The translations under genes were made by a program, and so were the position numbers. From assembly GCA_038231155.1 (NCBI GenBank), contig JBBRLY010000013.1, positions 196,305 through 260,304 on the forward strand: a stretch of 64,000 nucleotides of DNA. The letters run 5' to 3'. Position 1 is the first letter of the stretch. Each line of letters starts with the position of its first letter. Origin of the DNA: Candidatus Saccharimonadales bacterium. Its GTDB lineage: Bacteria > Patescibacteriota > Saccharimonadia > Saccharimonadales > JANWIN01. Below are positions 25,432 through 36,262 of the stretch, piece by piece. The notes beneath the pieces were generated by a model. That model made no database searches and was not told the DNA's origin. It saw only the letters and a program-made list of their open reading frames with translations.

Positions 25432-28400
25432 ATGGCCCGATTACCACAGCCAGGGGGTGACGACGGAGATTGGGGGATTATACTCAATGATTTCTTAGAT
25501 GTTGCTCATAATCCCGATGGCAGTCTTAAAAATGTTGTTAGTTTAAACACCAGCCAATCTATTAGCGGCGCGAAGACGTTTTCAGTCTCGCCGACTGTAC
25601 CAACACCTGTACTAAGTGGAGATGCTACAACTAAAGCTTACGTGGACAGCACTGCCGGAGCTGGGACGACTGGGGCAACAGGCCCTGCTGGAGCAGCTGG
25701 TGCTACTGGTGCTGGTGTAACTGGTGCTACTGGCCCTATTGGTACAGTTGGAGCAACGGGATCACAAGGCACAACTGGCGCAACCGGATCAGGAGGTAGC
25801 CAAGGAGCAACCGGAGCTACTGGACCGACCGGAAGTACTGGAACGCAAGGTTCTACAGGAGCAACCGGAGCAGGCGTAACTGGAGCTACTGGACCTGCTG
25901 GAACTGTTGGAGCAACAGGTTCACAAGGCACAACTGGCGCAACCGGATCTACCGGCACGCAAGGTACCACTGGTGCGACGGGACCGACTGGGACAACAGG
26001 TACGACAGGCGCCACCGGGACAACAGGTGTACAAGGAGCTACTGGATCAACAGGAAATCAGGGCACTACCGGAGCGACGGGTCCGACTGGGACTACTGGA
26101 ACTACAGGAGCAACCGGTAGTCAAGGTAATGCCGGTGCTACCGGAGCAGTTGGGGCCAGTGGCGCTACTGGGCCTAGAGGTTTTGCTGGTGGTGATACTT
26201 TTACTTATACCTTCGATACAGGCACAACTGATGCAGACCCGGGTTCGGGCAAACTAAGATTTGATAACGCTACTGTTTCCTCGGTCACGCATATTTATGT
26301 AGACGTATTAGATAGTAATGGGACTGATGTTACAACTTGGCTCAACAATATGGGTGGTGGTGTTGTTAAGTTATTTAATAACTCAGACCCCACCAAGTTT
26401 GCTATTTTTACTGTTGGTTCAGTTACCAGCGTCGCTGGATATGATAAGTTAAATGTAACTTATACCACAAATGCTGGGACGCTTGGCACTACGGCCGCAG
26501 ATCTAGTATTAACTTTTGCTCCGCCTGGACCGACCGGTCCGCCAGGCAACGCAAGTACTCAGGGAGCTACCGGAGCTACAGGACCGATTGGTGCTGATGG
26601 AGCAACCGGTGCTGGAACCACAGGAGCCACCGGCTCAGCCGGGGCTTCAGGTTCGGCTGGTGCAACTGGTGCAACCGGAAGCAGTGGTCTCGGTTTTGGT
26701 AACGTAGTTACTAAAACAACTAACTACACAATTGTTTCAGGAGACAATGGCACAGAAATAACATTTAATGGATCTAATTTAACGGCTAAGCTACCAGCCA
26801 CAGCCCCAGCTCAGCCCTGGATGGTAACTGTTATTAATTTAAATGCCAGTAGCTTAACCTTAGATCCTAACGGCCTCACCTTAAATGGTTCAGTAAGTAC
26901 TAGCTCAATAGCTCAAAACCAAAGCGTTTTTGTTTGGTCAGACGGTACTAACTACAATTATGGTACCGGCCCCCAAGGTGCCACCGGACCTACTGGGACA
27001 ACCGGGGGACTAGGTAATACGGGGGCTACAGGTAGTGCTGGTAGTCAAGGAGCTACTGGTTCTGTAGGAGCTACAGGTTCTAGTGGTGGACAAGGGGCTA
27101 CAGGGTCAACTGGTACAACCGGAGTAACCGGTGCGACTGGACCTGCAGGTCAGTTTGGTTTAGCGAGAACTGGTGTTAAAACAGCTAACTATAGTGCTAG
27201 TGTAGGAGACTTAGTTCCTTGTGATACTAATACAACTGGTGCCTTTACGGTAACGCTACCTGATGCCCCAGCAGATAAATCTACTATTGGCATAAAGCTT
27301 ATTATTCAAGGTGCGACTAATACTGTTACTGTAGTCACTCATGCTGATGCTGGAGCTAGTGGTGGAGCAACTGGTTCTGATGTATTTAATAAAGCTGGCG
27401 GTGCAACCAGCTTAACACTTAGTCTACTTAATCAAGGAGTTATCTTAGAATACACGGCTGCATCAGCCATTTGGACAGTGCTAGCCGATGATTTGGCTTT
27501 ATCTCAACTGGATGCACGTTTTATTGCCAGTGGAGGAGCAGCCGGCGGTGACTTAACTGGCACTTATCCAAATCCGACGGTCAGTTCGACAGCTAACTTT
27601 AAGACTCAGGTTGAAACTGTACGTCTTGATCAAATGGCAGTTCCTACAGCTTCAGTTAGTCTTAATTCTCAGAAGATAACTAACCTAGCTAATGGTACTG
27701 CTGCCAGTGATGCTGCAGCCTTTGGGCAAATACCAACTGGGTTACCGCCTACAGGAACAGCCGGTGGTGACTTAACGGGTACTTATCCGAACCCAACTAT
27801 CAAGTCTGGTGTCAGTCTAACTACTCCAAATATTAATGTCGCTACTGCAACTTCTATAAACAAAGTTGCAATTACCGCTCCAGCTACTTCATCAACTTTG
27901 ACTATAGCTGATGGTAAAACACTTACAGTTAACAACTCATTAACATTTGCCGGAACCGATGGTACTACCATGACGTTCCCAAGTACATCGGCCACAATCG
28001 CCCGTACTGATGCTGCAAATACTTTCACCGGTGTCCAGACGATGACCTCGCCAGCTCTGACAACTCCAGCTATAAATGGTATTTCAACCGGAACAGGTGT
28101 AGCTACAGCCGCAACTGCTAGTACATTATTGCTACGAGATACCAATGCCAATGCCACGGCTAATAATTTTATTGAATCATATGCAACTACTACCACAGCT
28201 GCTGGTACTACCACTCTGACCGTAGGTAGTGCTATGCAACAGTACTTTACAGGCAGCGCAACCCAAACTGTTACTTTACCGGTTGCCAGTACCATGGTTC
28301 TTGGCCAAGGCTTTGCATTTACTAACAATAGTACTGGCGCAGTTACTATTAATTCATCTGGTGACAGCGCGGTTCAAGTTATGGCAGCATCATCATCTGC

Positions 28401-34756: not shown

Positions 34757-36262
34757 ATGATTAAACAAATAGTCTTTATCGGTGACTCATTAACGGTCGG
34801 ATTTCAGCTACTCGGTGTCTCGATCGGCCAGGGCGGGAAGGGCGGCTGGGTTGAGCTGGCAGCTGAACTTTTAAATGATGCCCCGACAGTGGGACCGCTT
34901 CTCGGCACCGGCATTCGACCGGTTTCCGGTGGTTGGGTCAGTCTTACTGAATGGAGTTTTGCGGGCAGTTGGACAGCCGTTACTAACAGTAATGCCTTCG
35001 ATAAAATGCCCTATAACTCAATTAAGTATGCCAATGGTGCTACTAACATTGCCACCTTTACGGTCTCCACCCATTGGCGCCCGGCCGTTGGCTTTTGTAT
35101 CTACTATATTGACTACGCCAGCGGTGGTAATTGGCAGTACCGGATTAATGGCGGCAGCTGGACGAACATGGGCCAGACCATTCTAAATGACGATAAATTG
35201 GCCAAATTTTATGTGGCGTCGGCCGTTTCGCCTGGCCAAACCATCGATATTCGGGGGTTCGACGGGACGGCAGATTGCGGCGTATTGCCAGCCGGCATCG
35301 AATTATTCTATAGCGATCCTAGGGTGGCCACTCAGGGCTTGATTGTCCATAATCTGGCCGTTGGGGGAACTTTCATGAGTCAATTATTTCCCAGTGCTCC
35401 GGCCGATCCGTTGGCTTTTTTTGATTCGGTCAAACTTGGCACGGGTTCGCCCATCACCAATTCCCCCAATAGTGGGACGTTTATTATGCACATCAATGAC
35501 GTGGTATTTAACAACGTCGGTCAATGGGCAACTAATCATACATCGTTTTATAATCGCGTCTCGCCGCTGGGTCCGGTCGGCTTTATTAGCCCCTGGGAAA
35601 ATGGCGCCGGGCCGTCCAGTTTTGTCACCAAGGTGACCAATTACACCGTTCTCACAAGTGACAACGTTTTTGGGTTTAACTTTAATGGCACTAGCCTAAC
35701 TGCCACCTTACCAGCAACCCCCCCTGCACCAGGACTTATTTCCTGGTATGTCATCATTATCAATCTTAATGCCAGCGCTCTGACCATTAATCCGAATAGC
35801 AATACGTTAACTGGGTCGAGCACAGTGGCTCAGAATCAGGTTGTCCAAATCACCTCCAATGGCACCAAATACACTGTTAGTACCAATGGAGCCTACAATC
35901 AAGCCAACTTTCGGGCGTCAACTAAGTCATCGGCTCAATCCCTGGGTGCTCAAATTTTTGATATTTATGACGCCTGGAACGCCAATGGCTGGGGGAATGT
36001 CGTCGGCACTCAGAGCGCGGCCCTGATAGCTCAGGGCTTTACCATCCCCGATGATAGTGGCACCCATCCCACCCAAGCCGCTCACTTAGATTTAGCAGTT
36101 CGTATATATTGGTTTTTGCGTAATCAAATCCTCGGAATTAGCAATGAACCTGCAGCTTATTCAGTCGGAGCAAAACAAGTTGCATCCAGTTATACTGGCA
36201 GTAAACCAGCGGTTGCTTATACTTCTAGTTTACCAATTTCGTTATTACCGCTAGATCATTGA
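34757..36262 (+). CDS. SGNH/GDSL-type hydrolase fused to a fibre-type module
   Basis: 501 aa. The N-terminal block IVFIGDSLTVGF gives the GDS catalytic Ser. An internal segment (nt 35621-35885), VTKVTNYTVLTSDN...TATLPATPPAP...IIINLNASALTINPNSNTLTGSSTVAQNQVVQITSNGTKY, matches fibre 1 at nt 26701-26965. A late DSGTHP may be block V (DxxH). Confidence 0.72.
   Translation: MIKQIVFIGDSLTVGFQLLGVSIGQGGKGGWVELAAELLNDAPTVGPLLGTGIRPVSGGWVSLTEWSFAGSWTAVTNSNAFDKMPYNSIKYANGATNIATFTVSTHWRPAVGFCIYYIDYASGGNWQYRINGGSWTNMGQTILNDDKLAKFYVASAVSPGQTIDIRGFDGTADCGVLPAGIELFYSDPRVATQGLIVHNLAVGGTFMSQLFPSAPADPLAFFDSVKLGTGSPITNSPNSGTFIMHINDVVFNNVGQWATNHTSFYNRVSPLGPVGFISPWENGAGPSSFVTKVTNYTVLTSDNVFGFNFNGTSLTATLPATPPAPGLISWYVIIINLNASALTINPNSNTLTGSSTVAQNQVVQITSNGTKYTVSTNGAYNQANFRASTKSSAQSLGAQIFDIYDAWNANGWGNVVGTQSAALIAQGFTIPDDSGTHPTQAAHLDLAVRIYWFLRNQILGISNEPAAYSVGAKQVASSYTGSKPAVAYTSSLPISLLPLDH

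Follow-up and report, generated by a model that had tools for sequence, protein, structure and literature searches.

A putatively domesticated, phage-derived tail-fibre locus on a Saccharibacteria chromosome

A central open question is how the ultrasmall Patescibacteria identify their host bacteria and attach to them, and to our knowledge only type IV pilus adhesins have so far been tested for this role. The locus described here raises the question of whether two giant collagen-like fibres are the remains of a phage or belong to the cell itself. It lies in a Saccharibacteria (Saccharimonadales) MAG, 0.93 Mb in size and about 97% complete (96.8%), in agreement with the reduced episymbiont supposed in the original prediction. 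The window, that is the whole stretch of DNA analysed, comprises 64,000 nucleotides. The fibres, their shared N-terminus, stalks, insert and unrelated C-termini, the small ORFs, the esterase, the GT-B glycosyltransferase and the RCC1 protein were all found where they had been predicted, and the features of the locus are the following:

23772..23996, + strand: TatA ORF, conserved-backbone context (sequence; TatA-TatC synteny in relatives)
24037..25011, + strand: TatC, conserved backbone gene that borders the variable fibre island on its left (Pfam TatC, E=3e-49; syntenic in the related loci L013-L015 and in genome G181)
25097..25300, + strand: TatB-like small protein (NCBIfam TatB_1, E=9e-17)
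25432..30804, + strand: fibre 1, 1790 aa, putatively phage-derived collagen-like fibre with the Saccharibacteria N-terminal motif
25432..25662, + strand: fibre 1 N-terminal domain, aa 1-77, with the Met1 motif (aa 1-35) and a BppL_N/DUF5907-like phage-fibre segment (aa 36-77)
25663..26196, + strand: fibre 1 collagen-like stalk 1, aa 78-255 (Pfam Collagen; GXY periodicity)
26197..26526, + strand: fibre 1 globular insert, aa 256-365, with homologues among phage tail-fibre proteins (common to fibre 2, whose copy matches phage tail fibres)
26527..26694, + strand: fibre 1 collagen-like stalk 2, aa 366-421
26695..26961, + strand: fibre 1 β-module, aa 422-510, also in the SGNH esterase (blastp, 55% identity, E=4e-19)
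26962..27186, + strand: fibre 1 collagen-like stalk 3, aa 511-585
27187..30804, + strand: tip region at the C-terminus of fibre 1, aa 586-1790, containing phage tail repeats of PTR/DUF5907-like type (a string of 10 letters)
27539-27798 / 28481-28740: direct repeat within the fibre 1 tip region
30806..31075, + strand: 89-aa ORF, coiled-coil-like, possibly no real gene
31163..31315, + strand: 50-aa ORF, coiled-coil-like
31380..34622, + strand: fibre 2, 1080 aa, paralogue of fibre 1
31380..31610, + strand: fibre 2 N-terminal domain, aa 1-77
31611..31970, + strand: fibre 2 collagen-like stalk 1, aa 78-197 (Pfam Collagen; GXY periodicity)
31971..32294, + strand: fibre 2 globular insert, aa 198-305 (matches phage tail fibres by tblastn)
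32295..32699, + strand: fibre 2 collagen-like stalk 2, aa 306-440
32700..34622, + strand: tip region at the C-terminus of fibre 2, aa 441-1080, unrelated to the fibre 1 tip (blastp)
34757..36262, + strand: SGNH/GDSL-like esterase, 501 aa, with the fibre β-module at aa 290-372 (35624-35872)
36360..37526, + strand: GT1 (GT-B) glycosyltransferase (Pfam Glycos_transf_1)
37558-39837, - strand: RCC1 β-propeller with RCC1/RLD domains (Pfam)

Judging from their sequences, fibres 1 and 2 are old paralogues. Their N-termini align with 79% identity over 75 aa within a near-identical stretch of 77 aa, where the invariant residues are MxRLPxPGGDDG, two further strings of 10 and 15 letters, and TKAYVD. At the DNA level identity in this region is 70%, with 32 synonymous and 16 non-synonymous codon differences. 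Both in the N-terminus and in the insert dN is about 0.17-0.19 whereas dS is saturated, which indicates strong purifying selection on these two parts and not chance. The genes are intact, very long and free of frameshifts. The C-terminal regions of the two fibres show no relationship by blastp and vary among relatives as well as between the paralogues, whereas N-terminus, stalk and insert are conserved; this bears out the exchangeable tips of the original prediction. In a protein language model the neighbours of both tips were phage tail-fibre clusters, which serve as leads only, and the AF2 model of the fibre 2 tip (6-sequence MSA, pLDDT 45) was too poor for a binding fold to be recognised. 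A C-terminal TKGDL repeat, at first taken by us to be Pfam Phage_fiber_2, was dropped as Pfam at E≤10 gave no support. A literature search on collagen and tail-fibre proteins of Saccharibacteria, on DUF5907 and on BppL returned nothing directly on this fibre family.

The body of the fibres has homologues in phages. Searched by tblastn, the insert of fibre 2 matched phage tail fibres with 34-43% identity, among them a putative tail fibre of Manatee Spring phage MW202476 (43%) and the tail fibre of Pelagibacter phage HTVC010P (37%). Homologues of collagen region and insert are located in prophage tail modules beside Baseplate_J, tape measure and lysin. The collagen-like tail fibres of these phages and of the IMG/VR prophages L022 and L024 consist, as here, of a stalk, a homologous insert and variable C-terminal tips; their modules also resemble the locus in a GT1 placed after the fibre and, in one phage, in a carbohydrate esterase downstream. 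Unlike such modules, the locus has no baseplate, tape-measure or capsid genes, and its fibres are chromosomal, conserved in relatives and begin with the Saccharibacteria Met1 motif and not with the N-terminus of a phage fibre. The closest phage-module relatives, L022 and L024, have a GC content of 53-59% and relatives of proteobacteria type, with Ralstonia/Achromobacter phages and a lambda gpJ-like tip, and an origin in phages of actinobacterial hosts was thus left unsupported.

The Met1 motif comprises the first ~35 residues (a string of 30 letters), lies at Met1 and contains no hydrophobic signal. It is common to more than 100 Saccharibacteria proteins of varied kinds, all of which lack a Sec signal peptide, and its cargo includes fibres, esterases, β-helix lyases and chitin-binding proteins. 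The family is multi-copy, with up to 13 members per genome, and was found in 110 of the 301 genomes of the order. No match was obtained in 50,697 phage genomes, the motif being essentially absent from phages, including the phage relatives of the fibres. Residues of the N-terminal domain are invariant across an alignment of 56 homologues, and the BppL_N match at aa 35-55 is sub-threshold only. In the AF2 monomer model of the first 85 aa (56-sequence MSA, pLDDT 68) helix 13-25 is the sole confident part. The motif probably took the place of the end by which a phage fibre is anchored to the baseplate. More tentatively, it might be the signal of a new Sec-signal-independent route of secretion or surface anchoring in Saccharibacteria with more than 100 cargo proteins, hence a modular, phage-derived toolkit of host-binding fibres on a cellular export system. 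The search identified no export machinery for the fibres, WXG100 (T7SS) being sub-threshold only.

The favoured reading, to which a probability of about 0.55 is given, is a domesticated, phage-derived tail-fibre cassette kept on the Saccharibacteria chromosome, whose fibres are putative surface filaments for host binding with a Met1 targeting or anchoring tag and exchangeable tips. On this view they probably belong to the cell itself, which would use them at its surface to seize its host. Saccharibacteria would have acquired the cassette, with its two paralogous fibres, module-bearing SGNH esterase and GT1, from phages and retained it in a conserved chromosomal island between tatC and GT1, the phage-type body of trimerising collagen-like stalks and insert being fused to the Met1 motif of the lineage. 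The products would assemble into trimeric surface filaments, targeted or anchored at the cell surface by the motif with no need for a Sec signal peptide, and the variable tips may bind host-surface polysaccharides in the manner of phage receptor-binding tips. Glycosylation of the collagen stalks may be the task of GT1, and the esterase may alter glycans of the host. The locus would point to a second, phage-derived route of host binding beside type IV pili, consisting of domesticated tail fibres with exchangeable receptor-binding tips, and tip swapping would account for changes of host range, as in phages.

Similar architectures are known outside phages. BclA-family exosporium glycoproteins of Bacillus anthracis/cereus lack a signal peptide, have a short N-terminal targeting motif found on several surface proteins, a collagen-like stalk and a globular tip, and are glycosylated. 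The fibres resemble them in the missing signal peptide, the short motif present on many proteins and the collagen-like stalk with its putatively globular tip, with GT1 adjoining the fibre genes. However, BclA is a spore protein and the organism studied here does not sporulate, and the Met1 motif is Saccharibacteria-specific and not BclA-like, which reduces the predicted likeness to an analogy; the Pfam scan of the tips detected no C1q/TNF domain. The adhesin architecture of streptococcal Scl1/Scl2 and of Lcl is also collagen-like, and NCBIfam models of collagen-like adhesins match the collagen region of the fibres below their cut-offs. In contrast to Scl/Lcl, the fibres have neither a Sec signal peptide nor a C-terminal LPXTG anchor, and the terminal domains differ. 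Inspection found no hydrophobic h-region in either fibre, as expected from the original prediction.

Export or attachment through the type IV pilus system or another, unknown secretion system, for example as pilus tip or decorating adhesins, is the best of the alternatives and is judged improbable. PilX1 and PilX2 of Nanosynbacter lyticus are T4P minor pilin adhesins without canonical signal peptides (PilD), with glycan-binding tips that bind the host; pili serve host binding in Saccharibacteria, and in the related locus L012 the fibre-GT1-GDSL gene set adjoins N_methyl pilin genes. These adhesins are however pilin-type, assembled by T4P and unrelated to the fibres in sequence and architecture. 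The fibres are far bigger than pilins and show no pilin-like N-terminus, the MxRLPxPGGDDG start containing neither a class III (PilD) leader nor a hydrophobic α1 helix.

Somewhat less probable still, the fibres could be passengers without cellular function, left from the tail-fibre end, now in decay, of a prophage or a phage infecting the lineage, with the remainder lost, on unbinned contigs or acting in trans. Stalk, insert and GT1 are homologous to pieces of real prophage tail modules, and the GC content of the locus (0.45-0.52, raised partly because of Gly/Ala/Thr codons) exceeds the genome mean of 0.40. On the other hand, a Pfam search of the window detected neither structural nor packaging nor tail genes, consistent with its description as phage-free, and genome-wide it found no portal, capsid, terminase, sheath, tube, baseplate-J or tape-measure genes. 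With Phage_sheath_1, Phage_tube, Baseplate_J and PhageMin_Tail all missing from the genome, no tailocin module is linked to the fibres. The sole terminase-like match, a weak TerL-like one, proved to be a polysaccharide deacetylase-GT1 fusion, and the only tyrosine recombinase is on a different contig, with no integrase near the locus. Since the binning of a MAG can drop a prophage or mobile element, these absences are strong and not absolute evidence. Logan contigs back the fibre locus, yet they end inside the internal repeats of fibre 1, so the repeat copy number there depends on the assembly. A search for sequencing runs returned DNA runs only.

The surroundings of the locus also disagree with decay, as tat genes flank it on one side and a conserved GT1 on the other. 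L013-L015 share the order SmpB…TatA-TatC-[fibres/collagen proteins]-…GT1, and G181 the order TatC-fibre A-fibre B-SGNH, with variable C-termini in both cases; the relatives keep the tatC-fibre-GT1 setting. Such conservation, the purifying selection on both paralogues, the intact genes and a cellular, multi-copy motif with diverse cargo speak against a decaying prophage. Because the 97%-complete genome lacks structural genes, the synteny persists in relatives and selection is strong, the locus is read from sequence as a domesticated, phage-derived fibre system and not a prophage, as the original prediction had preferred; its alternative of a prophage or tailocin tip with the remainder elsewhere was not supported by the genome-wide search. 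That the fibres are receptor decoys or contact weapons competing with phages or rival epibionts for host receptors, and not host adhesins, is very improbable. Receptor mimicry would be in keeping with a fibre body of phage origin and with the variety of tips, but toxin and immunity domains are absent.

The 89-aa ORF starts 1 nucleotide past the stop codon of fibre 1. Because a search of seven other genomes of the family did not recover it, it is perhaps no genuine gene. The esterase presents a GDS block I (Pfam Lipase_GDSL, E=0.003, aa 5-46) and has neither the Met1 motif nor a signal peptide. Its predicted fibre module was recovered as 83 aa (aa 290-372) equivalent to fibre 1 aa 426-508, with the identity listed above. 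Homologues of GT1 follow collagen tail fibres in prophage tail modules; the protein is 83-85% identical to the GT1s of syntenic Saccharimonadales loci, 37-38% to those of the L022/L024 phage loci and 44% to a cyanophage GT1.

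The fibre locus lies in a Saccharibacteria MAG of 928,683 bp (23 contigs, 96.8% complete; window at G000:C13:196305-260304) and comprises the genes listed here by window position. Names attached to homologues are 'Candidatus Saccharimonadales' and 'Saccharibacteria'.

Genes of the fibre locus
23772-25300: TatA, TatC and TatB-like genes, directly upstream of fibre 1
25432-30804 (+): fibre 1, collagen-like protein, 1790 aa
31380-34622 (+): fibre 2, its paralogue, 1080 aa
34757-36262 (+): SGNH esterase with GDS block I
36360-37526 (+): glycosyltransferase GT1
37558-39837 (-): RCC1/RLD β-propeller protein, 759 aa, hydrophobic N-terminal segment, adjoining GT1

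All features described in the original prediction are present. The two fibres have a common 77-aa N-terminus (79% amino-acid identity), collagen-like GXY stalks, a globular insert (aa 256-365 in fibre 1, aa 198-305 in fibre 2) and a second stalk, beyond which the sequences diverge. Neither carries a signal peptide, as had been stated, and twin-arginine signals are also absent. The fibre module reported in the esterase was recovered as an 83-aa β-module matching fibre 1 (E=4e-19), and the glycosyltransferase and RCC1 protein do follow it. In the DNA comparison of the paralogues dN is ≈0.17-0.19 and dS is saturated; the pair duplicated long ago and has been subject to strong purifying selection. 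Fibre 1 contains a 260-nt direct repeat (27539-27798 and 28481-28740, 91% identity). The locus is backed by Logan DNA contigs, which end at the copies of this repeat, so that its copy number in the fibre 1 assembly is uncertain. The exact fibre 2 product was not found in a 15-billion-protein collection, where fibre 1 and the SGNH esterase of the same contig were found; the gene may have been called in another way in public annotation.

The simplest reading is that a phage tail-fibre cassette (fibres, esterase and GT1) was domesticated and retained in a chromosomal island of Saccharibacteria. The baseplate-anchoring end would have been swapped for a cellular motif at Met1 (first ~35 aa), and the receptor-binding tips would vary between paralogues and between relatives. 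The signal-less SGNH esterase is left unexplained by this model.

In an exhaustive search fibre 2 had 49,001 relatives, most of them matching at stalk plus insert, and the insert matches phage tail-fibre proteins. Two relatives on long contigs sit inside real phage tail modules, one (L022/L023) with Baseplate_J, fibre, GT1, GH108 lysin and integrase, the other (L024) with tape measure, lambda gpJ-like tip protein, fibre and GT1. Their fibre N-termini lack the Saccharibacteria motif. The locus GT1 is 37-38% identical to the GT1s of these modules and 44% to those of cyanophages, and one of the phage loci has a carbohydrate esterase downstream of the fibres. Fibre body and GT1 are homologues of parts of phage tail-fibre modules. 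For both tips the nearest language-model clusters are those of phage tail fibres (scores <0.9, leads only); a structure model of a tip was of insufficient quality for fold search.

The N-terminal motif is cellular: 197 homologues of the first 75 aa were identified, nearly all in Saccharibacteria, and the Met1 motif had no match among 50,697 phage genomes. The motif stands at Met1, with no hydrophobic signal, in all but one of 120 homologues. It occurs in 110 of 301 genomes of the order (up to 13 copies per genome) and is sparse in Patescibacteria outside it. C-terminal cargo includes GDSL esterases, β-helix/pectate lyase, CBM5/12, NosD, Laminin_G and one S74 chaperone. Matches in IMG/VR are weak and confined to aa 36-75, a KxYVD phage-tail-repeat segment that recurs in a siphovirus tail fibre (L009) and lies near BppL_N and DUF5907/PTR phage tail repeats in Pfam. 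BppL_N is the N-terminus of a lactococcal phage receptor-binding protein. Invariant positions all fall within the first 30 aa. When the N-terminal domain is modelled by itself, the one structured element in the AF2 prediction is an amphipathic helix (13-25) and the remainder is disordered; this is more in line with a short tag for targeting or binding than with a folded domain. The motif defines a cellular protein family; nothing on it was found in the searchable literature, and the family and its putative export route may be new.

Under the domesticated-cassette reading the products would be trimeric surface fibres, putative binders of host glycans; the Met1 motif would mediate their display along a route independent of Sec signal peptides, and GT1 would glycosylate the stalks. 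Display through type IV pili is unlikely. Host binding has circumstantial support: Saccharibacteria live as obligate episymbionts, and PilX1 and PilX2, the host-binding proteins known from them, are glycan binders that likewise have no canonical signal peptide. The adhesin domain of PilX2, a minor type IV pilin of N. lyticus, is an RCC1 β-propeller, so the RCC1/RLD protein may be a further host-binding protein.

That the fibres are the end of a decaying prophage is largely refuted. The absence of phage structural genes, originally noted for the window, extends to the whole genome (Phage_portal, TerL, Phage_capsid, Phage_sheath_1, Baseplate_J, PhageMin_Tail and Phage_tube: none at or above cut-off), which leaves a prophage or tailocin with its remainder elsewhere unsupported; the system is not a phage tail fibre or tailocin in situ. 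The locus is moreover syntenic in relatives: the order SmpB-MTase-TatA-TatC-variable surface-protein genes-GT1 recurs in related Saccharimonadales contigs (L013-L015), the Tat genes marking the conserved left edge of this variable island, and a genome of the same family (G181) has TatC-fibre A-fibre B-SGNH with N-termini and bodies kept and C-terminal tips different. The fibre locus is part of a conserved chromosomal island, with no prophage. A role as receptor decoys is very improbable.

Fibre body and GT1 are shared with phage tail-fibre modules; the phage structural module is absent. The likeness in working to phage receptor-binding proteins or BclA-type collagen adhesins would be a functional analogy. 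They are not members of the Scl/Lcl or pilin families, whose defining features they lack, and probably not of the BclA family, Pfam having found no C1q/TNF domain in the tips.

The sole terminase-like match, a weak TerL hit outside the window (G000:C13:174309), is a ~1000-aa polysaccharide deacetylase-GT1 fusion and not a terminase. The only tyrosine recombinase of the genome (G000:C12:213805-214332, Phage_integrase Pfam over cut-off) is unlinked to the fibre locus and probably Xer-type. Also encoded near the locus are a V/A-type ATPase, SmpB, GluRS, two sortase-domain proteins (20298-21023, -; 49683-50903, +) and an 839-aa VirB4/HerA-like ATPase (55235-57754, -; DUF87, TrwB_AAD_bind, TraG-D_C), possibly a component of a secretion or conjugation-like system.
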